A stretch of DNA of 64,000 nucleotides from Endomicrobiia bacterium (GTDB lineage Bacteria; Elusimicrobiota; Endomicrobiia; DTEH01). The stretch is taken from assembly GCA_039630545.1 (NCBI GenBank), contig JBCNUU010000003.1, positions 99,250 through 163,249 on the forward strand. Direction: 5' to 3'. Positions 4,471 to 31,167 of the stretch are shown here, one piece after another; within the stretch, counting starts at the first letter, position 1; each line of letters begins with the position of its first letter. A program made the translations under genes and the position numbers. The notes below the pieces were generated by a model. The model was given only the letters and a program-made list of their open reading frames with translations, did not search any database and had not been told where the DNA came from.

Positions 4471-6369
4471 GTGACTGAAGCACTTTCTAAACTTAAAAGT
4501 ATCCTTAAAGATCAAGAATATAAAAAATTAGAAAAGATAAAAAATAAAGAAGTACATGAATTCATATTAAAATCAATTGAATTGTGTACTCCAGCAGATG
4601 TATTTATTTGTTCTGATACACTTGAAGAAATTGCATATATAAGAAATATGGCAATTGTTTCTGGGGAGGAATCAGCAGCACTTCTTACTCCTGGGCATAC
4701 ATTTCACTTTGATGGTATCAACGATCAAGGTAGGGATCGTGGTGTTACAAAATTTTTAGTTCCAAAAGGAGATAAACTTTCGAAAAAACTAAACCAGATT
4801 GACAGAGAAGAAGGCTTAAATGAAATTTTGGGACTTCTTAAAAACTCAATGAAAGGTAGGATAATGATTGTAAGATTCTTAACATTAGGCCCCTCAAATT
4901 CAGTATTTTCAATACCTTGTATGGAATGCACTGATAGTTGGTATGTAGCACATTCTGTAAGTCTACTTTACAGAGAAGGATATAATATGTTTTTAACCCT
5001 ACCAGAGAATGCTGAAATTTTTAAAACCTTACATTCTTCTGGTGAGGTTGAAACAATAAGCAATGGTTTTCCTGTTAGTAAAAATTATGATAAAAAAAGA
5101 ATTTATATTGATTATATCACAAACACTGTATATAGTGTCAACACACAGTACGCAGGTAATTCTGTTGGGTTTAAAAAACTAGCCTTAAGACTTGCAATAA
5201 GAAAAGCGCATAAAGAAGGCTGGCTTGCTGAACATTTTATGCTTATGGGAGTAAAAGGTCCAAATAACAGAAAAACATACTTTGCTGGTGCTTTTCCTTC
5301 TGCTTGTGGAAAAACTTCAACTGCGATGTTACCTGGAGAAACGATTCTTGCTGATGATTTAGCATATGTAAGAAATATAAATGGAGAATGTCGCGCAGTA
5401 AACGTTGAAAAAGGTATTTTTGGTATAATACAGGATGTAAATCCTAAAGATGATCCTTTAATCTGGCAAGTTTTAAACTCTCCTGGTGAGGTGATATTTA
5501 GCAATGTTTTAGTAAAAGATGCCAAAACCTGGTGGCTTGGTATGGGAGTTGAACTTCCAGAAGAAGGAAGAAACTTTAGCGGTCAGTGGTATAAAGGCAA
5601 AAAAGATGACTCAGGCGAAGAAATTCCTGCAGCACATAAAAATGCAAGATATACTGTTTCGCTTAAAGCACTTGCAAATTGTGATGAAGAATTAGAAAAT
5701 CCAGAAGGTGTATATCTTGCTGGTATAATGTTTGGGGGAAGAGACTACAGAGGTTATGTTCCGGTTCAGCAGAGTTTTGACTGGACACATGGAGTTGTAG
5801 CTTTTGGAGCAGCGTTAGAAACAGAAACCACTTTTGCGATTGTAGAAGAAGAAGGTAAATATGAGATAAACATAATGAGTATTCAAGATTTTGTTTCTAT
5901 ACCGTTAGGCACTTATGTAAAAAATTATATTGAGTTTGGTAAGAAATTAAAAAAACCTACAATAATATTTGGTGTGAATTATTTCTTGCGAGATTTAAAA
6001 ACAGGAGAGTTTTTAAATTCTCGTAGAGATAAACATATCTGGGTAAAATGGATGGAGTTGAGAGTTCACAACGATGTAAAAGCAAGGAAGACACCAACTG
6101 GGCTTATACCATTATATGAAGACTTAGTTCCACTTTTTAAATCTATTCTTAACAAAGACTATAAAAAAGAAGATTATATAAAACAGTTCACCATTCGTGT
6201 TCCAGAAAATCTAGCAAAGATAGACAGAGTAGTAAAATTCTGGCAGCAAGAGGAAAACACTCCTCAAGAAATTTACGATGTTTTGGAGGCACAAAAACAG
6301 AGATTACTTGAAGCACAAAAGAAATTCGGTGATTATATTTCTCCTGAAAATTTTGAAGTTGTAATATGA
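4471..6369 (+). CDS. pckG: phosphoenolpyruvate carboxykinase (GTP)
   Basis: FPSACGKTS kinase-1a motif of GTP-PEPCK, 632 aa, GTG start with AAGGAGG RBS. Confidence 0.9.
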   Translation: MTEALSKLKSILKDQEYKKLEKIKNKEVHEFILKSIELCTPADVFICSDTLEEIAYIRNMAIVSGEESAALLTPGHTFHFDGINDQGRDRGVTKFLVPKGDKLSKKLNQIDREEGLNEILGLLKNSMKGRIMIVRFLTLGPSNSVFSIPCMECTDSWYVAHSVSLLYREGYNMFLTLPENAEIFKTLHSSGEVETISNGFPVSKNYDKKRIYIDYITNTVYSVNTQYAGNSVGFKKLALRLAIRKAHKEGWLAEHFMLMGVKGPNNRKTYFAGAFPSACGKTSTAMLPGETILADDLAYVRNINGECRAVNVEKGIFGIIQDVNPKDDPLIWQVLNSPGEVIFSNVLVKDAKTWWLGMGVELPEEGRNFSGQWYKGKKDDSGEEIPAAHKNARYTVSLKALANCDEELENPEGVYLAGIMFGGRDYRGYVPVQQSFDWTHGVVAFGAALETETTFAIVEEEGKYEINIMSIQDFVSIPLGTYVKNYIEFGKKLKKPTIIFGVNYFLRDLKTGEFLNSRRDKHIWVKWMELRVHNDVKARKTPTGLIPLYEDLVPLFKSILNKDYKKEDYIKQFTIRVPENLAKIDRVVKFWQQEENTPQEIYDVLEAQKQRLLEAQKKFGDYISPENFEVVI

Positions 6370-6646: not shown

Positions 6647-6827
6647 TAAAGAAGGAGATATTCTAGAAATAAAATTTTCAGAGGTCCCTATCCAGGAGAG
6701 TGAATATTTGAAAAAAAGTGGAATAGTAATAGATTATGATAATGAAGGTAAAATTGTTGCTATTGAAGTTCTTTCGTATAGTAAAAGAGTAAAAAAGGAA
6801 ACTCTACCAGAACTAGCTGCGATTTAA
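6627..6827 (+). CDS. DUF2283-family putative antitoxin
   Basis: 66 aa. NYDKEGDILEIKFSE...GIVIDYDNEGKIVAIEVLSYSKRV is a classic DUF2283 sequence. GTG start with AGGAGG RBS, overlapping the upstream ORF by 20 nt. Confidence 0.65.
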   Translation: MIQINYDKEGDILEIKFSEVPIQESEYLKKSGIVIDYDNEGKIVAIEVLSYSKRVKKETLPELAAI

Positions 6828-6964
6828 TACGCTTCTGCTGAAATTTTGAACAAATAATAAATAACCCTTAACCGATGAACAAAAAATTTTATGTTAAGAA
6901 AAAAACCAATTGTTTGAGAAATTAAACCGTTACAATCCAATAATAAAAAGTGAGGTAAAAAATT

Positions 6965-7453
6965 ATGAAAAAATTAATAAGTATAATAATGGGCTCTGAC
7001 TCAGATCTTCCTACAATGAAAGATACAGCAAAAACACTTGAAGAGTTTGAAGTAGGCTATGAGATAAAGATTCTTTCTGCTCACAGAACTCCTGATGATC
7101 TAAAGGAATATATAAAACAGGCAGAACAAACCGGAATAGAACTATTCATAGCAGCTGCAGGTGGAGCTGCACATCTTGCTGGAGTTATTGCAGCACATAC
7201 TACTCTTCCTGTAATTGGGGTTCCAATGGAGTCTCCACTTAATGGATTTGACTCTATACTTTCTATGCTTCAGATGCCACCGGGAGTCCCTGTAGCGGTT
7301 GTGTCTAAAGGTTCATGGGGTGCCAAAAACTCTGCCATATTGGCAATTCAAATTTTGTCTCTAAAATATCCTGAATTAAAAGAAAAACTTAAACAGTACA
7401 AACAAAAAATGGCAGAATCTGTAAGACAAAAAAATAATGCGTTGCAAATCTAA
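6965..7453 (+). CDS. purE: N5-carboxyaminoimidazole ribonucleotide mutase (PurE)
   Basis: [13 protein letters not shown]...[15 protein letters not shown]...PVIGVP are PurE signatures. 162 aa. Confidence 0.85.
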
Positions 7454-8000
7454 AGCAATTTTTTTAGATAGAGACGGAACTATAAATGAGGATGTAGGTG
7501 ATTTTTGTAGTGTAGAAAAACTTAAATTCATTGAAGGTTCTCTTGAAGCTTTAAAGCTTCTCCAAAAAGAGTTTCTTCTTTTTATAATAACAAATCAAAC
7601 GGGCATAGATAAAGGTATTTTCACAGAAGAAGAATTTCTTGAATTTAATAAGACTTATCTGGATATTTTATATACAAATGGAATAGAAATAAAGCAAGTA
7701 CTTTACTGCCCGCATAAAAAAGAAAAAAACTGTGTTTGTAGAAAGCCGAGTACTTATTTTATTAATTTGCTAAAAGATAAATATGATTTAGATTTAAGCA
7801 AATCTTTTTCTATAGGAGATCATCCTCACGATGTTGAAATGGGATTTGCAGCTGGTACCAAGACAATATATCTTCTTACAGGTCACGGGCAAAAACACTT
7901 AGAGGAATTAGTAAAAAAACCTGATTTTGTTGCAAAAAATCTCTATGAAGCATCACTATGGATATTAAATAACATCTATGAAAAACAAAACTCTTGTTAA
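7437..8000 (+). CDS. gmhB: D-glycero-D-manno-heptose 1,7-bisphosphate phosphatase-like HAD phosphatase
   Basis: AIFLDRDGTIN (HAD motif I), CPH...C.CRKP zinc-binding loop and GDHPHD are typical of GmhB / histidinol-phosphatase-like HAD IIIA. It overlaps the purE 3' end. Confidence 0.7.
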   Translation: MRCKSKAIFLDRDGTINEDVGDFCSVEKLKFIEGSLEALKLLQKEFLLFIITNQTGIDKGIFTEEEFLEFNKTYLDILYTNGIEIKQVLYCPHKKEKNCVCRKPSTYFINLLKDKYDLDLSKSFSIGDHPHDVEMGFAAGTKTIYLLTGHGQKHLEELVKKPDFVAKNLYEASLWILNNIYEKQNSC

Positions 8001-8418
8001 TGGGAAAAATTTTATAAACAAATTTCCTAAAAATTTAGTGATTCTATGCAGTGACGGAAGATTTGTTAATCAAACTATGGATTTTGTAGAAAAAAAACTA
8101 AAAATAGAAAAGAAAGATTTAATGGTTTTACCGGGAAGTGTTGTTTTTCTTCGTCTTAAGGAGAAAAATTTAATTAATAGATTAAAACTCTTAATAGAAA
8201 AACATAATATAAACAGAATAATAGTTTTTTCTCATACAGATTGTGGTTTTTATAAAGAGACTTTTAAAACTGACCCGGAAAAAATTAAAAATATTCAAAT
8301 TGAAGATTTAAATTTTTTTAAAAGTAACATCCAAAATCTTTATAAAAACAATATTAAAGTTGAAACCTACTATGTAGATTTACAAGAGAATAAAAAAGTT
8401 TGTTTTATAAAAGTATAA
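7978..8418 (+). CDS. small beta-carbonic-anhydrase-like protein (CSDGR ... HTDCG motifs)
   Basis: 146 aa. The two zinc-ligand motifs C-x-D-x-R and H-x-x-C-G of beta-class CA are present, but the protein is shorter than typical beta-CAs. Translationally coupled to gmhB. Confidence 0.4.
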   Translation: MKNKTLVNGKNFINKFPKNLVILCSDGRFVNQTMDFVEKKLKIEKKDLMVLPGSVVFLRLKEKNLINRLKLLIEKHNINRIIVFSHTDCGFYKETFKTDPEKIKNIQIEDLNFFKSNIQNLYKNNIKVETYYVDLQENKKVCFIKV

Positions 8419-10637: not shown

Positions 10638-11250
10638 AAGACTCACTTATGAATTCTTCAAACAGCATCCACTGAAAGTAGCAAAGTTACTTTTAGGTAA
10701 ATATCTTGTAAGAATTTTACCTGAAGGCAAAATTGTAGTAAAAATTGTTGAAACAGAGGCGTATGGTGGGAAGGAAGACGATGCATGTCATGTTGGTAGA
10801 TTTGGAAAAACAAAAAAGACCCAAACCTTATTTGGTAAAGTTGGTTGTGCTTATGTTTATCCTGTGCATATTAATACTTATTGTCTAAATGTAGTCTGTC
10901 ACAAAAATGGTCAGGCAGGTGGGGTTCTAATAAGAGCAGCACAACCCACAGAAGGGATAGACCTTATCTTAAAAAATAAAGGTAAAACTATATCTTCTAA
11001 TATAAACAGGAAAATTTTAACAAATCTACTAAACGGACCTGGTAAGTTATGCAAGGGTTTAAAAATTGATAGAAAATTAAACGGAGAGGATATGGTAAAA
11101 GGTAAATTTTTGTATCTGCTTGAAGGAGAAAAAGTAAAAACTTCAGAGATTTTAAAAACACCCAGAATAAATATTCCTTATGCTAAAAAATCTAAAAATT
11201 GGTTGTGGAGATTTTTGATAAAAAATTCAGAGTTTGTGTCAAGAATTTAA
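10621..11250 (+). CDS. mpg: DNA-3-methyladenine glycosylase (Mpg/AAG family)
   Basis: ETEAYGG...DDACHVGR...VYPVHINTYCLNVVC is characteristic of the methylpurine-DNA glycosylase family. Confidence 0.75.
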   Translation: MDMPGRRLTYEFFKQHPLKVAKLLLGKYLVRILPEGKIVVKIVETEAYGGKEDDACHVGRFGKTKKTQTLFGKVGCAYVYPVHINTYCLNVVCHKNGQAGGVLIRAAQPTEGIDLILKNKGKTISSNINRKILTNLLNGPGKLCKGLKIDRKLNGEDMVKGKFLYLLEGEKVKTSEILKTPRINIPYAKKSKNWLWRFLIKNSEFVSRI

Positions 11251-22144: not shown

Positions 22145-23902
22145 ATGAAAAAAACCAAAATTATATTTTTTGTTTTCATATTAAACAGTTTCTGTTTTTC
22201 TTCAGAAGTTTATCTTGAAGCTACTAAGTCACCAAACATATCAGGTATTTATATAATAACCAAACAAGATCTACAAAACTCCGCTTCAGATAATTTAGTT
22301 GAAATTCTTAAAAAATATGGTGTCAACACTTTCAGCAGAAGCAACATCCAAACAGATGTTTCTTTAAATGGTGGAACTTTTGAACAAATAAAAATTTTTA
22401 TAGATGGAATTCCAATAAACGATCCTCAAACAGGCCATCACAACTTAAATATTCCCTTAAGCTTAAAAGATATAGAATCAATACAAATAATAAAAAACGA
22501 TAACTTTTCAAAATATCCTCAGGGTGCATTTTGTGGAGCGATAAATATTATAACTAAAAAAGACACTTCAAACTTTTTTAAACTTTCATATGGAAGTTTT
22601 AATACTTATTTAGCAAAAGCCCATATTTCACATCAAAACACATTAATATCACTTGAAGCAGGTAGTTGTTCCGGGTTCAAAGAAAACACAGACTACAATC
22701 TCTACAATGCATTTTATCAAACACAAATTAAAAATTCTAAATTTATTTTAGGAGTTTTAGACAAAAAATTTGGCGCGCAGGATTTCTACACAGCTCCTTC
22801 TACAAGAAAAGAATATGAACATATCCGAACTATTTTCATGGGTCAATCTTCTGATTTTATACTGAAAGATAATTTGGTGTATAATTTAAATATGTTTCTT
22901 AGAACCGGATATGATTTTTACACAACTCAAAGATATAACCCTCAAGTATACTCAAACTATCACAACAGTTATGTCTGGGGAATTACCAATAAATTTAAGT
23001 TGTACTACAAAAGCTTTATTTTTGAGCCGTTATTAGAGGCAGTATACAAAAACCTTGATAGTAAAGGATTCAGCTCTTTATTTAATTGGAAAGGCATGGG
23101 CGAGTTTTTTGACAGTGAATATAGAGTCGGTATAAACTCTATTTTCAACTACCATAATTTAGCTTTAGAACTTACATTTATTGAAAACTACTATTCAAGA
23201 TATAAATTTGTCCCACAGTTTGGCTCAAAACTTACATTTGATTTCTTACCAAAATCAAGCATCTTTTTTATATTTAGTAAACTTCATAGAGTTCCATCTT
23301 ATACTGAGTTATTTTACTGGGATCCTGCTCACCAGGCAGATGAAAACTTAAAGTTAGAACATACAACAACCTATCAGGCAGGATTAAATAAAAAATTAAA
23401 AAACATAGTTTCATTCTCCTTAGCAGGATTTTTTTATGAACCTACAAACACTATTGATTGGACAAGAACAAAAAACTCCACACAGCCATGGCGTATTACC
23501 AACATAGCAAAGGTAAAAACTTTTGGTGGAAACCTGAAGTTAGATTTTTCATATAAAAATTTTGATGTGAAACTTTACTATGAACATATATTAAAAGAGT
23601 TTAACTTAGATCCAACAAAAGAATTAAAATATATAGAAAACTATCCAAAAAACTTCTTAAGTTTAAGTTTAGGTTTTCATCAAGTTTTTGGATTTAATGT
23701 TTATGTTGAAAGTGTTTACAAACATCTCACTAAGACTAACCCTGATGATTTCACATTATTTAATTTAGGAATAAGAAAAACTTTTAAAAAAGTTAATTTA
23801 ACACTAAGTGTTGAAAATTTGTTTGATATTAAATATGAAGAAATACCAGGTGTTCAGCAACCACCAAGAAACATAATTTTTTCAGCAGAATTAAACTTTT
23901 AA
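22145..23902 (+). CDS. TonB-dependent outer-membrane receptor (short form)
   Basis: Signal peptide and plug-domain motifs (..VSLNGG..IKIFIDGIPINDP..). The C-terminal barrel ends in ...SAELNF with a terminal aromatic. Confidence 0.65.
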   Translation: MKKTKIIFFVFILNSFCFSSEVYLEATKSPNISGIYIITKQDLQNSASDNLVEILKKYGVNTFSRSNIQTDVSLNGGTFEQIKIFIDGIPINDPQTGHHNLNIPLSLKDIESIQIIKNDNFSKYPQGAFCGAINIITKKDTSNFFKLSYGSFNTYLAKAHISHQNTLISLEAGSCSGFKENTDYNLYNAFYQTQIKNSKFILGVLDKKFGAQDFYTAPSTRKEYEHIRTIFMGQSSDFILKDNLVYNLNMFLRTGYDFYTTQRYNPQVYSNYHNSYVWGITNKFKLYYKSFIFEPLLEAVYKNLDSKGFSSLFNWKGMGEFFDSEYRVGINSIFNYHNLALELTFIENYYSRYKFVPQFGSKLTFDFLPKSSIFFIFSKLHRVPSYTELFYWDPAHQADENLKLEHTTTYQAGLNKKLKNIVSFSLAGFFYEPTNTIDWTRTKNSTQPWRITNIAKVKTFGGNLKLDFSYKNFDVKLYYEHILKEFNLDPTKELKYIENYPKNFLSLSLGFHQVFGFNVYVESVYKHLTKTNPDDFTLFNLGIRKTFKKVNLTLSVENLFDIKYEEIPGVQQPPRNIIFSAELNF

Positions 23903-23909
23903 ACTTTTT

Positions 23910-24569
23910 ATGGAAAATTTAACATTAACAACAGCATATATAGCAGGGTTTTTAGCAAGTTTTACTCCGTGTGTTTATCCATTAATTCCTGTAGTAGTAG
24001 CATATATAGGAATACAAGCAGAATCTTCAATTCAAAAGAAGATTTTAGTTACTTTGAGTTATGTTTTAGGAGTATCTATTGTTTATTCCATCTTAGGAGC
24101 GGTAGCTTCTTTAAGTGGAAGTGTGTTTGGACTTACTCAGAATAGTTTCTGGGCTAATTTAGTGGTTGGGGTGGTGTGTCTTTTGTTTTCTTTGAGTATG
24201 TTCGGTTTATTTAAGATAAACTTTCAACTACAAAGATTTATAAATCCATCCATTTTTAGAGGATACTTAGGCGGCTTTATATTAGGAGCAACCTCTGGAC
24301 TTGTTTTTTCACCGTGTAGCACACCTGTATTAGGCACTATTTTAGTTTTGGTTGCAACAAAACAAAATATCTTATACGGTATGTTGTTACTTTTTGTGTT
24401 TTCTTTAGGTCTTTCAACCACACTTCTTTTAGCAGGAATTTTTAGCGGAGTGGCAACAAAACTTCCAAAGTCAGGAAGATGGACATTTGTTGTAGAAAAA
24501 ATTTTTGCATTTATTATTTTAGTTGTAGCGATAATTTATATAAGAAAAGCAATTCTTCTTTTAATTTAA
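23910..24569 (+). CDS. ccdA: cytochrome c-type biogenesis / thiol-disulfide transporter CcdA (DsbD family)
   Basis: Six TM helices with the two conserved Cys (SFTPCVYP and FSPCSTPVLG). Confidence 0.75.
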   Translation: MENLTLTTAYIAGFLASFTPCVYPLIPVVVAYIGIQAESSIQKKILVTLSYVLGVSIVYSILGAVASLSGSVFGLTQNSFWANLVVGVVCLLFSLSMFGLFKINFQLQRFINPSIFRGYLGGFILGATSGLVFSPCSTPVLGTILVLVATKQNILYGMLLLFVFSLGLSTTLLLAGIFSGVATKLPKSGRWTFVVEKIFAFIILVVAIIYIRKAILLLI

Positions 24570-25350: not shown

Positions 25351-26053
25351 TTGTTAAAGAGAAATCTCTTTACTAAAATCTATATACAAAACTCTTTCTT
25401 ATCAGTAATGTTTAATCTTTTGATTTTAGAAAGAAGAACACTTTATGCTGAAAGTTTGAAAGAATTTTTTAAAAAATTAAAGATTTTTGACAAAATAGAA
25501 TATATTGATACAGTAGAGAAATGTTTTAAAATAATACGGAATAAAAACACATCTTTTTCTCTCATAATAATAGGTGAAATTCAACTGAAAAAAATTTTGT
25601 TATTTTTGTTCGTGAGATTAAAAAAATTTCACCTTCTGTTAAAATTCTTTGTTTATATGATCCTTCTGATAAAACTCCGAAAGAAAATTTTATTGTGCCC
25701 TTAATAGATGGATATGTTTCTGTTGAATGGACTGCTTCGGAGTTAAAAAATGGTATTCTGCATCTTCAAAAGGAAGGTATCTTATTCCCCAGAACTCTTT
25801 TTACATGTTTTTTTAGACATTTACATTCATATGACTTAAATAAAGATCAAAAACAGTCAATCATTTTTACGCCTAAAGAACAGATGATATTAAAAATGTT
25901 ATGTGAGGGAAGAATAAATAAAGAAATTGCTACTACTTTAAGAATTAAAGAAAAAAAACTGTTAAAAATCACCTGAATAAAATTTATCTTAAACTTGGGG
26001 TTAAAAAAAGAACAGAAGCAATTTTGCGCATGATTATACTTGGTATAATTTAG
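25351..26053 (+). pseudogene. LuxR/NarL-family response regulator disrupted by two -1 frameshifts in poly-A tracts (A7 at 25588-25594, A8 at 25951-25958)
   Basis: Frame 1: MFNLLILERRTLYAESLKEF...SLIIIGEIQL is a receiver-like N-terminus. Frame 0: ...NFVIFVREIKKISPSVKILCLYDPSD...PLIDGYVSVEW is the receiver C-terminus, followed by the LuxR HTH TPKEQMILKMLCEGRINKEIATTLRIKEK. Frame 2: TVKNHLNKIYLKLGVKKRTEAILRMIILGII* completes the HTH. Adding a single A in each tract restores one ORF. Confidence 0.55.
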
Positions 26054-26059
26054 GATTAA

Positions 26060-27403
26060 TTATTTTAAAAATTTTACAGAAGCTAAAGTTGCACCTAAAA
26101 ATTTTTCTTTTCCGCCATTGAGATAGTTTAGTCCTAATGATTGTCCATAAGTTACTTGTTTTATTATTTCAGGAGCTATTACTACATCAATAGCCCTTCC
26201 ATTAAATTCGCTGGCAGTAAATGTAATTTCAAAGTTTAGTTCGTCTTTAGAAATAGCTAAATCAGTGGCAGCATCTGATTTTACTTCTAATTGTTGTTGA
26301 TTCTGTTGAGATTTTGTGGTTACGATTTTGTCAATAAGTTCTCCAAAAGTATAAACTTCTCCTTCATTGTTTATTAATCTAAAATGTCCTTCTTTCCAGG
26401 TTTCATCTGCATAGATTTTTCCACCTCTAAGGTGGATTTTGTCAAAGCCGTCCGGCATAATTTTTGAAAGAGTATGGGTTATAGCTAAACCTAAATTTTT
26501 GGTTTCTACAAATTTTGAAACAAAAAGTTCACCAAATTTTACAAATTTTCCTTGTTCTGTATCATAATAACCATCTTTAGGTATTACTGGGGAGTCAGGA
26601 GTTGTAACTTTGGTTAATGCGGTTTCATCAAAACCATAAGTCGCGTTCCCTTTGAGTTCAGCTCCCGGAAATCTTATGTCTAAAGCTATCTCTGGGTTTT
26701 CAGTATTCCAGTTTATTATTCCATCAGTAGAATTTATATCAGTGATGCTTACATTAACATATTCTTTTATTTTTTGATAATCAGGTCCCCATATTTTTTC
26801 TCTGTGAGTAAACGATTCTGGCATCCACCAGGTATAAGTTGTTTGTTGTGGCTGGTCTAAAATGTAGTTGTAGTTAGCAGTATAGGTGTGTTTTTGAAGT
26901 TCACCGATTTCGTTTTCAACTCTGTAGTAGTCAACAGTGTTTGAAAGTTCCCATTCTCTTTTTACTAACCTGTTTTGTGGTGGATTTTCTCCTAAGTGAA
27001 ACCAGGTGTGGTTTCTTATTTTTGGCACATCTAAGATGTTTTCTATAGGTTTTTCAAAAGTAAGTAAGTCGTAGTAGTAGTTAAGTTTACGCCACGGTTC
27101 TTCTGCTTCTCTTTTGTTTAATACTAAAAATTTTACCTGGTTTTGTTGTGGTTTAAGGATATATTCTTCCACTCTTACTCTGTAACCATAAGCATCCCTT
27201 AATGATTTACCAAGTTGGTAGTCAGCTTGTTTTAATTCGTTTATGCTTTCATTAAGGTAGCCATCTTGTATAAACTCTATAGCTATTTCAGAGTTTAATT
27301 CTTGTGAGATGGTAAGTTCTTGTTGGACTGAAAGGTCCTCCTGGGAGTGTAGATATAATTGTATTAATAAAATTATTATTGTTGATATTAATATTTTTTT
27401 CAT
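26060..27403 (-). CDS. hypothetical secreted protein (447 aa), last gene of the ECF sigma operon
   Basis: Start reassigned to the ATG at 27403, preceded by GGAGG. Signal peptide MKKILISTIIILLIQLYLHS. No recognisable domain. Confidence 0.55.
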   Translation of the reverse strand: MKKILISTIIILLIQLYLHSQEDLSVQQELTISQELNSEIAIEFIQDGYLNESINELKQADYQLGKSLRDAYGYRVRVEEYILKPQQNQVKFLVLNKREAEEPWRKLNYYYDLLTFEKPIENILDVPKIRNHTWFHLGENPPQNRLVKREWELSNTVDYYRVENEIGELQKHTYTANYNYILDQPQQTTYTWWMPESFTHREKIWGPDYQKIKEYVNVSITDINSTDGIINWNTENPEIALDIRFPGAELKGNATYGFDETALTKVTTPDSPVIPKDGYYDTEQGKFVKFGELFVSKFVETKNLGLAITHTLSKIMPDGFDKIHLRGGKIYADETWKEGHFRLINNEGEVYTFGELIDKIVTTKSQQNQQQLEVKSDAATDLAISKDELNFEITFTASEFNGRAIDVVIAPEIIKQVTYGQSLGLNYLNGGKEKFLGATLASVKFLK

Positions 27404-27419
27404 TTTATTCCTCCTTTTT

Positions 27420-28016
27420 TTAACCTCTAATTCCGCATACATAGGTGTCTAATATAGAATTTTTTTTGCCAAAACTATCATAGGTATAATCTGTCGCGTT
27501 GGGATCGGGAATCCAGATTTCTTTGTCCACTACAAACATATATTGGTATCTTCCAGGTTTTAATGCAATCTCTGCAACCCACTTTCCTTTTTCTTTTTTG
27601 CATTTGGTTTTGTTTATGTCCCATTTGTTAAAGTCTCCTGCTATAGCCACAGATTGTGCTTCAGGTAAATCAATTTCAAACCTTACGACAACTCTTTTTT
27701 GATATATCTTTCTTGATAAAGGAAACCATAAAAGCATAAAAATTAAAATAATCCCAAAAACGAATGCTTGTTTTGGAAGAAAATTCGGTATAAACTTTTC
27801 TTCTTTTTTTGGGAGGTTTGATAAAATTTTAGAAATTAAATATTCAGGTGCTTCGGAGTGAGGTAGAGCTCCCAATTTTTCTAATTTTTCTTCTAATTTT
27901 AAGTAATTTTTGCAAAAAGGACAGTTTTTAATGTGGTGTTGAAGTGTTGAAACTTCTTTTTCACTTAACTGATTTTCCAGGTATTTTTGAAGAAGTTTGA
28001 CATTTTTGCATTTCAT
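27420..28016 (-). CDS. anti-sigma factor: N-terminal zinc-finger anti-sigma domain, one TM helix, C-terminal CBM48/AMPK-beta glycogen-binding-like domain
   Basis: HHIKNCPFCKNY is an H-x3-C-x2-C ZAS-type motif. TM helix AFVFGIILIFMLLWFPL. C-terminus VVRFEIDLPEAQSVAIAGDFNKWD...PGRYQYMFVVDKEIWIPDP resembles the AMPK beta GBD. Confidence 0.65.
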   Translation of the reverse strand: MKCKNVKLLQKYLENQLSEKEVSTLQHHIKNCPFCKNYLKLEEKLEKLGALPHSEAPEYLISKILSNLPKKEEKFIPNFLPKQAFVFGIILIFMLLWFPLSRKIYQKRVVVRFEIDLPEAQSVAIAGDFNKWDINKTKCKKEKGKWVAEIALKPGRYQYMFVVDKEIWIPDPNATDYTYDSFGKKNSILDTYVCGIRG

Positions 28017-28063
28017 ATTTTGTTGCCTCTTATTATATATACGCTTTAAAGTTCAAAAATGTT

Positions 28064-28597
28064 TCATATCTGAATTTTTAGCTTTTTGGCAAGCAATAGC
28101 TTTGCTCTAAACAACAAGGTTTTTACTGTACCAATTGGTTTAGAAGTAACTTCAGCAATTTCTTCATAGGAGAGGTTTTCTATGTATCTTAAAATAAGTA
28201 TATTTAGATATTTTTCTGGTAAAGTCCTTATTAAAGATAGAAGCATTTGGGATTCTAAATTTTTTTGAATAGATTCTTCAACTTTATCTTCACTATAAAT
28301 CAAATTTTTATGGTCTTCTAAAGAAACCGGTAGAAATTTTTTCTTTCTTAAAAAATCTTTAGCAGTGTTGATTGCTATTTTATATAACCAGGTTTTAAAA
28401 TTAAAATTTGATTTGTATTTTTTAAGATTCTTATATAATTTGATAAAAACCTCCTGGGTGAAGTCCTCAGTCTCTGTGTAGTTATTAAAGATAGACATAC
28501 CAAGGTTGTAGATGTAGTTTTTGTATTTCTTGATTATTTCTGCATAAGTGTTTATGTTTCCTTTTAAAACTTCTTTTATTATTTCTTCTTCGGTCAT
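28064..28597 (-). CDS. ECF-type RNA polymerase sigma factor (sigma-70 family, regions 2 and 4)
   Basis: Region 2 ...FTQEVFIKLYKNLKKY...WLYKIAINTAKDFLRKK and region 4 LSYEEIAEVTSKPIGTVKTLLFRAKLLL. Confidence 0.8.
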   Translation of the reverse strand: MTEEEIIKEVLKGNINTYAEIIKKYKNYIYNLGMSIFNNYTETEDFTQEVFIKLYKNLKKYKSNFNFKTWLYKIAINTAKDFLRKKKFLPVSLEDHKNLIYSEDKVEESIQKNLESQMLLSLIRTLPEKYLNILILRYIENLSYEEIAEVTSKPIGTVKTLLFRAKLLLAKKLKIQI

Positions 28598-29232
28598 TAT
28601 CTTTCTATGATTTCCTTCTCTTTTGTTTCCTTAAGAAGTTCTTTTTCTATTATTTCGTGTTTTGACTTGATTATGTTTTCCTTTATTAATTGGAAGGATT
28701 TTTTTGTGGAGATACCGTTTTTTATTATTTCTAAAGAAACCTCAGGACTGATGTTATTTTTTCTGGCATAGTTTATTAATGATAAAAATTTCAAACTTTC
28801 TTTTACAGGTAAATTTGAATTTGATGAAGTTTTTAAAATTTGAATTATTTCATAAAAGGTAATGCCTTGTTCTATCTGGTCAGCTAGATATTGAATGGAA
28901 TATTCCAGTTCACTTTTGGAAATTTTAGGGTAAAATTCGTCTACTAAAATTTTAGCGATTTTGTAGGTGCTGATTTTTTTAATAAGTGTAGTGTAGAAAA
29001 GCAAGTAGTCAACTTTTTTTGCTATAGCTTCTTTTACTCTTAAAAGAGCTAAATTATAAAGTATGTTGTCTGAGTTTATATATTTTTCCAGCGCAGTTGT
29101 AATGTTTAGAATTTGTTGTTCTGAAAAGTTAGTTTGAGTTTTTAAAATTTCTTTTATTTCATTCTGACTTCCAAAAGAAAATTTATATATTGTGAAAGTA
29201 AAAAGAATAAATATAAAGATTCTCTTTGCCAT
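28597..29232 (-). CDS. hypothetical secreted protein (211 aa)
   Basis: Signal peptide MAKRIFIFILFTFTIYKFSFG. Its stop overlaps the sigma-factor start (ATGA). Confidence 0.5.
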   Translation of the reverse strand: MAKRIFIFILFTFTIYKFSFGSQNEIKEILKTQTNFSEQQILNITTALEKYINSDNILYNLALLRVKEAIAKKVDYLLFYTTLIKKISTYKIAKILVDEFYPKISKSELEYSIQYLADQIEQGITFYEIIQILKTSSNSNLPVKESLKFLSLINYARKNNISPEVSLEIIKNGISTKKSFQLIKENIIKSKHEIIEKELLKETKEKEIIER

Positions 29233-29255
29233 TTTATCCTCCTGTTAGTTAGGTG

Positions 29256-30482
29256 TCAATACTTATAGTTTATTCCTAAAAGATAATAACCTCCATTGTA
29301 GTTATATTTATAAAATTTTTCATACTGCATATTGGACTTTGAGGCATAAAGATTAATTATAGTTTTTAAAGAGAAGTTGGAAGTAAATTTGTACTCAAAA
29401 GAAAAAGATAAATTTGTGTAATTGATGTAAATTTTCTCTTCTAAAAATTCTCCAGTATTTTCATCTTGAAGGGGTCTTTGGGGATAGTTTTTCCTTTCAG
29501 AGGTCAATGTAACAGATAAAATGGAAGGTTTTTCGTTTATCATAAATATATAACTAAATGGTAAAGTAACCTTAAAACTATTATAATCGTAGTAATCCTT
29601 GATAAATTTAGGATAATTGGGATCGATATAGAAGTGATTTTGATTTGAGTTAAGTGAACTTAATGTAAAGATTATTCCTATGTTTGAAGCAGAATTTTTA
29701 AAAAAAGTGCTTAAATAGCTAATGCCAAAACTTAAAGAAACTGTTTGATCCTTTCTTTTTTCTTCTATATACTGGGGGCCATCTACTACTAAGTTTTGCT
29801 CTATAAAGTTTTTAGTGTTTGTATTTAGGGAAACTTTTAAGGTTAATTTATCTGTGAGTTTAGCTTCATTTTCAATGTAGAAATGGATACTGTTATAGTC
29901 CAAAGGATGTGTTCCTGCGTTTATGGAATATTCTGCACCAAATGTTTCTTGAGCTTCATAGCTTAAAGATGTATAATTAGGAAAAATAATTTTACTAAAA
30001 TTAATTCCTGAAGATAAAATATTTCTTTTATTGAAATCTTTTGAGACTTCAACTCCTAAAGCGCTTCTTGTGTAGTTGTAAAGTCCATTTTCCCAGGTTT
30101 CATTTTTTGTTTCCTTTATAGCTTGATGTTTCAATACAATTTTTGGTTTTACTGAAAACTCATAAGGAAGTTTATGAATAAGTTTTATCACTAAAAGGCT
30201 ATCAAGTGTTTCCTGGTATAATGTCCCTCCACCTAACAACTCCTCAACTTCTTTAAAACCACAGTATCTTAAGTTTAATATAGGAAGAAGAGTTGTGGAT
30301 AAAGAAAATCTTAATCCTAAAGAAAAATTAGCATCAAGATAACCACTAAAACCACTTGTTTCACCTTCAAATGTATTCTGACCACCTAATAGAGATAAAT
30401 TTATTACTGGTATTAATTTCGTTTCCGAATAAAGACTATTAAAAAATATGGTTAATAATAAAACATATATTACCTTTTTCAT
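29256..30482 (-). CDS. putative outer-membrane beta-barrel protein (408 aa), first gene of the ECF sigma operon
   Basis: Signal peptide MKKVIYVLLLTIFFNSLYS, beta-strand-rich, C-terminal ...GINYKY. Confidence 0.5.
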   Translation of the reverse strand: MKKVIYVLLLTIFFNSLYSETKLIPVINLSLLGGQNTFEGETSGFSGYLDANFSLGLRFSLSTTLLPILNLRYCGFKEVEELLGGGTLYQETLDSLLVIKLIHKLPYEFSVKPKIVLKHQAIKETKNETWENGLYNYTRSALGVEVSKDFNKRNILSSGINFSKIIFPNYTSLSYEAQETFGAEYSINAGTHPLDYNSIHFYIENEAKLTDKLTLKVSLNTNTKNFIEQNLVVDGPQYIEEKRKDQTVSLSFGISYLSTFFKNSASNIGIIFTLSSLNSNQNHFYIDPNYPKFIKDYYDYNSFKVTLPFSYIFMINEKPSILSVTLTSERKNYPQRPLQDENTGEFLEEKIYINYTNLSFSFEYKFTSNFSLKTIINLYASKSNMQYEKFYKYNYNGGYYLLGINYKY

Positions 30483-30536: not shown

Positions 30537-31040
30537 TTAAAATTCTATAAATTCTACACTTTTTGTGGTGGTATTTAAGATGGCTATTGTTTTTGTGTTA
30601 TGTAGCCATCCTCCTGCTTCTCCAGGATTTATGACAATGGTTTTTCCAAAATTTTTAAGGTCTTTTCTGTGTGTATGGCCATATATTATAAAGTCATAAT
30701 CTCCTGATTTTGCTAACTCTTCAAGATTCTGTGGTGGTTCATGAAAGATTATTAGCTTAAAGGATGAGTCATCTTTATGGAGAGAATACTCAAGAGGTGG
30801 AAGCTGAATTATTGAACCACGTTTAGTGTATTTTTCTTTTAGCATTTGTTTTTCTCCATCATTGTTGCCAAAAACAAGATGAATAGGACAGTTAAGTTTA
30901 TCAAAGTGAGAAAATGTTATAGGAGAAATAATGTCTCCTGCGTGGAATACCATTTCTACATTTTTTGAGTTAAAAATTTCTACTGCTTTATCAATTGCAG
31001 GCATATTCTCGTGTGTGTCGGAGATTATTCCGATGAGCAT
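30537..31040 (-). CDS. metallophosphoesterase (YfcE/MJ0936 family phosphodiesterase)
   Basis: IISDTHEN...FHAGD...GNND...GHTH calcineurin-like metal ligands. 167 aa. Confidence 0.75.
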   Translation of the reverse strand: MLIGIISDTHENMPAIDKAVEIFNSKNVEMVFHAGDIISPITFSHFDKLNCPIHLVFGNNDGEKQMLKEKYTKRGSIIQLPPLEYSLHKDDSSFKLIIFHEPPQNLEELAKSGDYDFIIYGHTHRKDLKNFGKTIVINPGEAGGWLHNTKTIAILNTTTKSVEFIEF

Positions 31041-31074: not shown

Positions 31075-31167
31075 CGGAGGGGGCGGGATTCGAACCCGCG
31101 GTCCAGGTTTTAGCCCGGACAACTGCTTAGCAGGCAGCTGCCTTAAACCAATCTCGGCCACCCCTCC
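31075..31167 (-). tRNA. tRNA-Ser (anticodon GCU), long variable arm, no encoded CCA
   Basis: The reverse complement reads GGAGGGGTGGCCGAGATTGGTTTAAGGCAGCTGCCTGCTAAGCAGTTG...GCGGGTTCGAATCCCGCCCCCTCCG. It has a 7-bp acceptor stem, the CT-GCT-AA anticodon loop, a long extra arm and the TTCGAAT T-loop. Confidence 0.85.

Follow-up and report, generated by a model that had tools for sequence, protein, structure and literature searches.

A predicted ECF sigma/anti-sigma operon of an Endomicrobiia bacterium with a CBM48-type domain on its anti-sigma factor

We analyzed a 64-kb window (GC ~29%) from the genome of an Endomicrobiia bacterium, the window being the whole stretch from position 99,250 to 163,249 of contig JBCNUU010000003.1 (assembly GCA_039630545.1), and describe an operon in which an extracytoplasmic function (ECF) sigma factor is followed by an anti-sigma factor whose C-terminal domain is predicted to adopt the fold of the CBM48/AMPK-beta carbohydrate-binding modules (CBMs). 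Taken as a whole, the operon is best explained as an autoregulated ECF switch of the SigW–RsiW kind with a periplasmic domain that would read a glycan, a reading to which we assign a probability of about 0.5. Five open reading frames (ORFs) lie co-directionally on the minus strand in the order OMP408 (a predicted outer-membrane beta-barrel protein), P211 (predicted to be secreted), sigma factor, anti-sigma factor and P447 (predicted to be secreted), and all five are present as a preliminary description of this DNA had listed them. The gaps within the operon are short; the stop codon of P211 overlaps the start codon of the sigma gene, and the spacing from the sigma to the anti-sigma gene is 47 nt.

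The sigma factor and its membrane-bound anti-sigma factor

The 177-aa sigma protein (28064..28597, minus strand) matches the Pfam families Sigma70_r2 (60.9 bits) and Sigma70_r4_2 (58.8 bits), with no Pfam match to region 1 or region 3, and scores 113.6 against the ECF superfamily model TIGR02937, for which the cut-off is 42.9. The protein is an ECF (group 4) sigma factor. The closest equivalog-type NCBIfam models are SigW and RpoE, both with cut-offs far above the scores that it reaches. Membership in the SigW equivalog was ruled out for PRK09641 (131.3 vs 209 bits) as well as for TIGR02948 (112.8 vs 243 bits); judged by its sequence, the sigma factor is SigW-like, not SigW.

The adjoining gene encodes the 198-aa anti-sigma factor (27420..28016, minus strand), of which residues 1–70 (27807..28016) are the predicted cytoplasmic part. 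An AlphaFold2 (AF2) model places four helices here, at residues 3–13, 19–31, 33–50 and 58–66, and the zinc-type ligands C3 and H28-x3-C32-x2-C35 can be read from the sequence, i.e. the H-x3-C-x2-C motif, preceded by a fourth ligand and set in a helical N-terminal domain, that marks the zinc-associated anti-sigma (ZAS) subgroup. A family profile made from 25 sequences matched the RsiW anti-sigma domain 5wuq_C in the PDB (E 5.6e-6), and the Pfam zf-HC2 score, 19.7 bits, falls just under the cut-off of 22.2. These results point to a class I anti-sigma domain that is ZAS-type by motif, with zinc binding putative. The sole hydrophobic segment of the protein, residues 78–104 (27705..27785), has a Kyte–Doolittle peak of 2.14 and contains an AF2 helix at 82–104. 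Given a single transmembrane segment and an anti-sigma domain that has to reach the sigma factor in the cytoplasm, the C-terminal beta-sandwich is very probably a periplasmic sensor domain. We hold with the same high confidence that the sigma and anti-sigma factors are a functional pair. The preliminary description had proposed an ECF sigma/anti-sigma module in which the anti-sigma factor has a ZAS-like N-terminus, one transmembrane helix and an extracytoplasmic C-terminal domain. Each of these proposals is borne out: the module by sigma regions 2 and 4, the TIGR02937 score and the adjoining anti-sigma gene; the motif by direct reading, with C3 as a further ligand; the single helix by both hydropathy and AF2; and the extracytoplasmic placement by the topology, a cytoplasmic placement not being obtained.

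The periplasmic domain and its relatives

The presumed input domain spans residues 108–192 (27441..27695, minus strand). In Pfam it scores 38.5 bits against AMPK1_CBM (cut-off 26.8) and 31.5 bits against CBM_48 (cut-off 22.4), and AF2 models it as a beta-sandwich at residues 109–191 with a predicted local distance difference test (pLDDT) value mostly >90. Using Foldseek, we found that its top solved structural neighbours are the CBMs of AMPK beta1 and beta2, with 1z0m_B superposing at a template modelling (TM) score of 0.88 and a root-mean-square deviation of 1.7 Å (E ~1e-7); the starch phosphatase SEX4 (3nme/4pyh) comes next among the structural matches. By sequence, its leading match in the PDB is a type II pullulanase, with AMPK beta and GlgB scoring lower. 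The CBM48/AMPK-beta fold claimed in the preliminary description is thus upheld by profile hidden Markov model (HMM) scores above the Pfam cut-offs and by superposition of the predicted structure on the AMPK beta1 CBM.

The glycogen contacts of AMPK beta1 are W100, K126, W133, L146 and T148 (PMC2642990). In a HMMER alignment to the AMPK beta sequences of the PDB, W100/K126/W133/L146/T148/N150 correspond to W132/M160/W168/F182/K184/N186 of the anti-sigma factor. When conservation was computed over 37 diverse members of the anti-sigma family, W132, W168 and N186 were 100% invariant, F182 (at the AMPK L146 position) was conserved in 92% and M160 in 84%, and K184 was variable. Met1 aside, every position that is at least 85% conserved falls in the periplasmic domain, and the mean identity of these members to the window protein is 46% in the C-terminal domain and 21% in the anti-sigma domain.

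Among proteins other than anti-sigma factors, the highest-scoring relatives of the sensor domain carry 3–18 tandem copies each, and a glycoside hydrolase family 13 (GH13) alpha-amylase/pullulanase catalytic domain was found in four of the nine tandem-copy relatives scanned. On sequence grounds, the closest multi-copy relatives of the domain occur in GH13 amylases/pullulanases. A common tandem form (among P0132–P0151) is a ~480-aa protein made up of four copies without a further domain; other proteins join the copies to GH13 or to TPR repeats. The source of one four-copy protein, P0003, names it ‘1,4-alpha-glucan branching enzyme’; in Pfam it has CBM-type binding domains only and no catalytic domain.

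Conserved core, companion genes and candidate promoters

A word-index search returned 109 homologues of the anti-sigma factor, mostly Nitrospira proteins of 226–241 aa, and 430 related stretches were found among 185,579 species-representative genomes. The best 80 of these 430 come from Elusimicrobiota, Nitrospirota (including Nitrospira moscoviensis, N. defluvii and N. lenta), Firestonebacteria, Thermodesulfovibrionales and Fibrobacteria. In 79 of the 82 related loci examined, the CBM48-type anti-sigma gene is directly preceded by a gene for an ECF sigma factor; the other three are explained by contig ends or by an artefact in calling the ORF start. When 1.84 billion representative proteins were searched with a profile, 516 matched at E<=1e-30, and the best 150 of these include ~27 full-length single-stretch proteins of 194–243 aa, each standing for a 50%-identity cluster of its own; the architecture forms at least 27 such clusters. 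In the 24 full-length members that we read, a helical N-terminus and a single transmembrane segment precede the same C-terminal domain, and zinc ligands are lacking. By this comparison of sequences the ZAS motif is a trait of the Elusimicrobiota/Fibrobacteria branch, not of the whole family. Public annotation labels the anti-sigma protein either “hypothetical” or “isoamylase early set domain-containing protein”.

In 72 of the 82 loci the CBM48-like domain occurs a second time. In most Nitrospirota loci there is a small CBM48-like lipoprotein (e.g. at 6741–7124 of the Nitrospira locus L002), which has a lipoprotein-type signal peptide, is encoded between the anti-sigma and the P211-like gene, and keeps the same Trp/Trp/Asn positions. 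In a Thermodesulfovibrionales locus (L074, 3689–7636), the sigma, anti-sigma and P211-like genes directly follow genes for a GH57 glycoside hydrolase and for a small CBM48-like lipoprotein; among the loci examined, this is the only one with an adjacent alpha-glucan enzyme.

P211 (28597..29232, minus strand, 211 aa) matches no Pfam or NCBIfam family. An HMM made from four low-GC seeds (P211 and those of L001, L004 and L019) picks out ORFs just downstream of the anti-sigma gene in Nitrospirota, with E-values to 1e-11 and a bias of 0, and after iteration of the HMM a P211-family ORF was found on the same strand and no more than 3 kb away in 79/82 loci. The family shares the motif GLPxxxLxxRxxEGLAKGV. 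Its profile gives summed weak-repeat matches to designer pentatricopeptide (PPR) solenoids (E 2e-8), and P211 is probably a secreted helical-repeat (alpha-solenoid-like) protein. Based on gene order and family membership, the sigma gene, the CBM48-type anti-sigma gene and the P211-family gene are a three-gene core. In L002, a 315-aa P211-family ORF (7084–8031) occupies a gap in the gene calls, none being called from 7124 to 8213, and the family may be under-annotated in public records.

The genes at the two ends of the operon belong to narrower groups. OMP408 (29256..30482, minus strand, 408 aa) has a signal peptide and is modelled by AF2 as an all-beta barrel of ~16 strands (pLDDT 87, predicted TM score 0.82). 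It has no Pfam or NCBIfam match and, in Pfam, no Plug, TonB_dep_Rec or signalling domain; with Foldseek it gave generic porin, BcsC, AlgE, FadL and CymA matches only. A specific barrel family was out of reach, many porins and exporters matching with a TM score of ~0.45. None of its 20 homologues is annotated; those with a named source are from Elusimicrobia/Endomicrobia, apart from one unclassified ‘bacterium’. In Nitrospirota a MetA-type outer-membrane barrel gene lies upstream in 68 loci, and hhalign detected no homology between this barrel and OMP408 (probability 0.6%).

P447 (26060..27403, minus strand, 447 aa) is called at the same length by NCBI; an alternative start at 27442 would give 460 aa. 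It has no Pfam match, two marginal NCBIfam matches far under cut-off and no detectable FecR domain, and the word-index search returned two close homologues only. Residues 35–414 of P447 align to residues 214–532 of a 547-aa FecR-domain (PF04773) protein of L005, whose gene stands directly after the anti-sigma gene and before an OMP408 homologue. P447 also aligns to a 448-aa FecR protein of L083 that adjoins an OMP408 homologue. By these alignments the P447 of the window is a FecR-less version of the module that follows the FecR domain in relatives. In L083/L084 a FecR-domain protein and an OMP408 homologue are joined by a giant CarboxypepD_reg-repeat protein, with no sigma gene nearby; this trio (L083/L084, 1–12700) adjoins Wzz/GNVR tyrosine-kinase and Poly_export (Wza-like) polysaccharide-export genes and a UPF0164 barrel. 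Since a FecR-type or P447 gene recurs beside an OMP408 homologue in L005 and L083/L084, OMP408 and P447 form a conserved gene pair, and the sigma system appears, from gene order, to have captured this pair in some Elusimicrobiota. None of the three flanking proteins matched a family above the Pfam or NCBIfam cut-offs, in agreement with the preliminary description; that description had overlooked the cross-phylum spread of the architecture, the place of P211 as a core component, and OMP408 and P447 as a separate conserved pair.

We searched both strands of the window for GAAAC-N16-18-CGTA and obtained two matches, with 0.44 expected. Both are on the coding strand of the operon, in intergenic gaps, and both read GAAAC-N17-CGTA: the candidate promoter P1 (30503..30528, minus strand) is ~20 nt upstream of the OMP408 start codon, and the candidate promoter P2 (28040..28065, minus strand), which fits TGAAACATTTT-N12-CGTA and reads TGAAACATTTT...CGTATAT, is in the gap between the sigma and anti-sigma genes. 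The motif agrees with the Bacillus subtilis ECF consensus tGAAACnTTTt...CGTA, which is typical of sigmaW (PMC5758882). Four other Elusimicrobiota loci have P2 at the equivalent position: L001, L004 and, with GTAT as the -10 element, L003 and L005. In the Firestonebacteria locus L019 the P2-type motif is upstream of the sigma gene, because the sigma and anti-sigma genes overlap there. The invariant columns across these loci are GAAA..T..T....GTA..T. The Nitrospirota loci have a different, analogous motif upstream of the sigma gene, GTTTAC-N16-CGTCTAAT; a GTTTAC...CGT-type motif was found in 63 of the loci scanned, in 47 of them with the N16 spacer. Looser patterns are not enriched in the window: GAAC-N16-19-CGT was found twice (3.9 expected), neither time in the operon, and GAAAC-N18-GTA alone three times (2.15 expected). 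The case for the promoters therefore depends on the stricter motif, on where its matches lie and on their conservation. A generic scan for sigma-70 promoters and terminators was uninformative. We consider P1 and P2 to be probable sigma-dependent promoters. Control of the flanking outer-membrane and secreted proteins by the sigma factor, as the preliminary description had suggested, gains from these two ECF-type motifs inside the operon, with promoter activity read from the motifs.

Two features of L005 touch on the same signals. Directly upstream of the sigma start is an 8-nt tandem array (6281–6332), AAACACTG x 6.5 with 97% matches, which repeats a TGAAAC/TGGAAC -35-like word about six times; it may represent several stacked -35 boxes or a tract prone to slippage. 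A near-match, TGAAAC-N18-ATATAT (A for G at -10), stands at 10780–10830, upstream of a CarboxypepD_reg-repeat protein gene of >1240 aa, which suggests that this giant surface protein may share the regulon.

Around the operon, a metallophosphoesterase (Metallophos_2) gene (30537..31040, minus strand; Pfam 112 bits) lies directly upstream. The same gene order is found in L001, and the gene is not present in the other related loci; it is probably a neighbour rather than an operon member. A tRNA-Ser(GCU) gene (31075–31167, minus strand) is immediately upstream of it. Downstream of the operon are two adjacent short ORFs on the plus strand (25351–25976), the second of which covers the first half of a GerE/LuxR helix-turn-helix only (profile positions 3–32 of 57); by sequence, the pair looks like a decayed response-regulator gene. 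Just past the downstream end of the operon, a plus-strand gene pair (22145–24569) encodes a TonB-dependent-receptor-like protein (585 aa, only a Plug domain detected) and then a DsbD/CcdA-type membrane protein.

The proposed switch, its alternatives and its relation to known systems

We propose that the sigma factor would be held at the membrane by the zinc-type anti-sigma domain, with the periplasmic sandwich as the input domain. A glycan would settle on the platform formed by Trp132, Trp168, Asn186 and Phe182, the ligand most likely being an oligo- or polysaccharide of the alpha-glucan type, and P211 may assist or modulate its reading. Occupancy by the ligand would alter the susceptibility of the anti-sigma factor to regulated intramembrane proteolysis and so free the sigma factor; by analogy with RsiW, RseA and RsgI, we somewhat favour proteolysis as the route of release. 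Free sigma factor would then transcribe from both GAAAC-N17-CGTA promoters. P1 would drive OMP408, P211 and sigma, giving positive feedback together with an outer-membrane channel, and P2 would drive the anti-sigma factor and P447, giving negative feedback together with the partner protein of the barrel.

Several observations weigh against this reading. The glycogen-contact Lys of AMPK (K126) is Met in 84% of the family, and the T148 position is not conserved. The conserved Trp residues also belong to the general AMPK1_CBM signature; keeping them is needed but insufficient for binding. No genes of alpha-glucan or other glycan metabolism were found among the neighbouring genes scanned, from 12.7 to 52 kb of the window. 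Most hosts of the family are Nitrospirota, which we take to be nitrite-oxidising autotrophs, and it is not obvious why such organisms would respond to an alpha-glucan. The near-universal linkage to P211 fits a protein partner at least as well as a glycan. Finally, the P1 spacing is not kept in the sister locus L001, where it differs by 2 nt, and P1 is therefore less certain than P2. Nor did a site-1 or site-2 protease come to light, no search aimed at one having been made. The preliminary description had taken the domain for a carbohydrate sensor: the invariant Trp/Trp/Asn set and the GH13 relatives make this more plausible, and the Met at the K126 position, the lack of glycan genes among those neighbours and the P211 linkage count against it. 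We judge the chances that the sensor domain binds carbohydrate to be evenly balanced.

Instead of a lectin, the sandwich may be a protein-docking module that binds P211 in the manner of RseA–RseB or MucA–MucB, or that binds the P447/OMP408 pair, in which case the switch would report envelope or outer-membrane assembly stress or relay a signal from the outer membrane. We see this as possible, at odds clearly short of even. It would account for the P211-family ORF that accompanies the core across phyla, in the window with its stop codon overlapping the sigma start, although P211 could equally be an output gene. An adjacent outer-membrane barrel in both Elusimicrobiota (OMP408) and Nitrospirota (MetA-type), the two being non-homologous, points the same way, as does the secreted FecR-domain protein encoded directly after the anti-sigma gene in L003 and L005. 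The very high conservation of the C-terminal domain and the Met at the K126 position would suit a conserved protein partner; yet the invariant residues are exactly the Trp pair and the Asn of the sugar platform, and the domain is most closely related to the starch-binding repeats found in GH13 enzymes. The docking and glycan readings are not mutually exclusive.

Two further alternatives would deny the sandwich a sensing role. As for RsrA or ChrR, the ZAS motif might receive a cytoplasmic thiol/redox or zinc signal, leaving the sandwich as a mere anchor or vestige. C3, H28, C32 and C35 are all present in the window protein, the ligands also occur in Elusimicrobiota and Fibrobacteria relatives, and the NCBIfam RsrA model gives a weak match (29.8 bits, cut-off 62.5). 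We nevertheless find this improbable: all ~100 Nitrospirota-type homologues and all 24 full-length members are without the zinc ligands while their C-terminal domain is almost unchanged, and the conserved function therefore lies in the C-terminal domain. Membrane-bound ZAS proteins such as RsiW are, moreover, presumably controlled by proteolysis and not by redox. Even less probable, in our view, is a generic Ig-like spacer without sensing function, in a constitutive housekeeping sigma/anti-sigma pair for the adjacent outer-membrane protein. E-set/Ig-like domains are common spacers, and in L083 the barrel and P447 occur also without sigma and anti-sigma genes; but a spacer would not be expected to show the highest conservation in the protein across phyla (46% vs 21% identity), nor to keep solvent-exposed aromatic residues of the platform invariant.

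Returning to the glycan-reading switch, its nearest known counterpart is sigmaW–RsiW of B. subtilis. We take the extracytoplasmic part of RsiW to be trimmed by PrsW and not to have the CBM48 fold. Both systems have an ECF sigma factor with a co-transcribed single-pass anti-sigma factor and an H-x3-C-x2-C N-terminal domain, as the 5wuq match indicates; SigW is the top NCBIfam model for the sigma factor, and the promoter motif TGAAAC(n)TTTT...CGTA fits the sigmaW-type consensus (PMC5758882). The present system differs in the score of its sigma factor (131 vs 209 bits), in its diderm host, and in the attachment of P211 and an outer-membrane barrel. The RsgI anti-sigma factors of Clostridium thermocellum sense external polysaccharides through extracellular CBMs and couple them to transcription (PMC10328401, PMC6852018, PMC4711584). 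Here too a CBM-type module is predicted on the outer side of a membrane anti-sigma factor, and by analogy it may have a sensing role. Unlike the ECF pair in the window, RsgI partners sigmaI, has an N-terminal fold of its own and a periplasmic domain that cleaves itself, and occurs in Gram-positive hosts. RsgI sensor modules are of CBM3, PA14 and GH types and are not known to include CBM48. Membership in RsgI was ruled out, there being no RsgI-type Pfam match at E<=1 and the partner being an ECF sigma factor.

With sigmaE–RseA–RseB of E. coli, and likewise AlgU–MucA–MucB, the operon shares a set of three genes for an ECF sigma factor, a single-pass anti-sigma factor and a secreted protein. In the known system the periplasmic domain of the anti-sigma factor is guarded and an envelope glycolipid is read, and the regulon concerns the outer membrane. 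No relationship of sequence or fold links the two systems: P211 is probably a helical-repeat protein, unlike RseB, which we take to be mostly beta, and the periplasmic domain of the anti-sigma factor here is a predicted CBM48 sandwich. The sandwich itself resembles the CBM of AMPK beta, SEX4 and the amylopullulanase repeats in fold, in Pfam membership and in retaining both stacking Trp residues and the equivalent of Asn150. It differs from the glycogen-binding domain of AMPK beta in having Met for K126, Phe for L146 and a variable residue for T148, and from all three in being placed, in the periplasm, on an anti-sigma factor and not on a kinase scaffold, phosphatase or glycoside hydrolase. FecI–FecR–FecA and the sigma/anti-sigma/SusC systems of Bacteroidota polysaccharide utilization loci likewise link an ECF sigma factor to an outer-membrane protein, and L003 and L005 have FecR-domain genes after the anti-sigma gene. 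In those two loci, unlike FecI–FecR–FecA, the FecR domain is carried by a secreted protein of its own. A FecR/TonB trans-envelope system was ruled out for the window, in Pfam searches, by the lack of FecR on the anti-sigma factor and P447 and of Plug or TonB_dep_Rec on OMP408.

In the literature we found no description of an anti-sigma factor with an AMPK1_CBM/CBM48 domain, with the supplementary ECF group tables, which could already list such a group, outside the search. The main texts of the ECF reclassification and class I anti-sigma papers do not mention such a domain. The architecture thus combines known parts of the sigmaW–RsiW type with a periplasmic receptor domain that is apparently undescribed on anti-sigma factors. 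More tentatively, and with a likelihood that we place well under one half, the sigma factor, CBM48-type anti-sigma factor and P211 may be an undescribed three-component envelope signalling system common to Nitrospirota, Elusimicrobiota, Firestonebacteria, Fibrobacterota and Thermodesulfovibrionales, in which a starch-binding-type module would serve as a periplasmic glycan receptor with a helical-repeat co-sensor and would control lineage-specific outer-membrane channels.

ECF sigma/anti-sigma pairs are among the commonest signalling devices of bacteria, and the signal is known for few of them. In this family the sensor fold is well understood and has a defined ligand platform, which makes the question of glycan binding concretely and cheaply testable, and cultured nitrifiers such as Nitrospira moscoviensis are amenable to physiology. 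The labels that the family carries in public records hide a regulator, and the linked helical-repeat protein represents a second uncharacterised family. If the three-component reading is true, the system would be a minimal non-TonB pathway for glycan sensing, or for surveillance of envelope glycans, in diderm bacteria.

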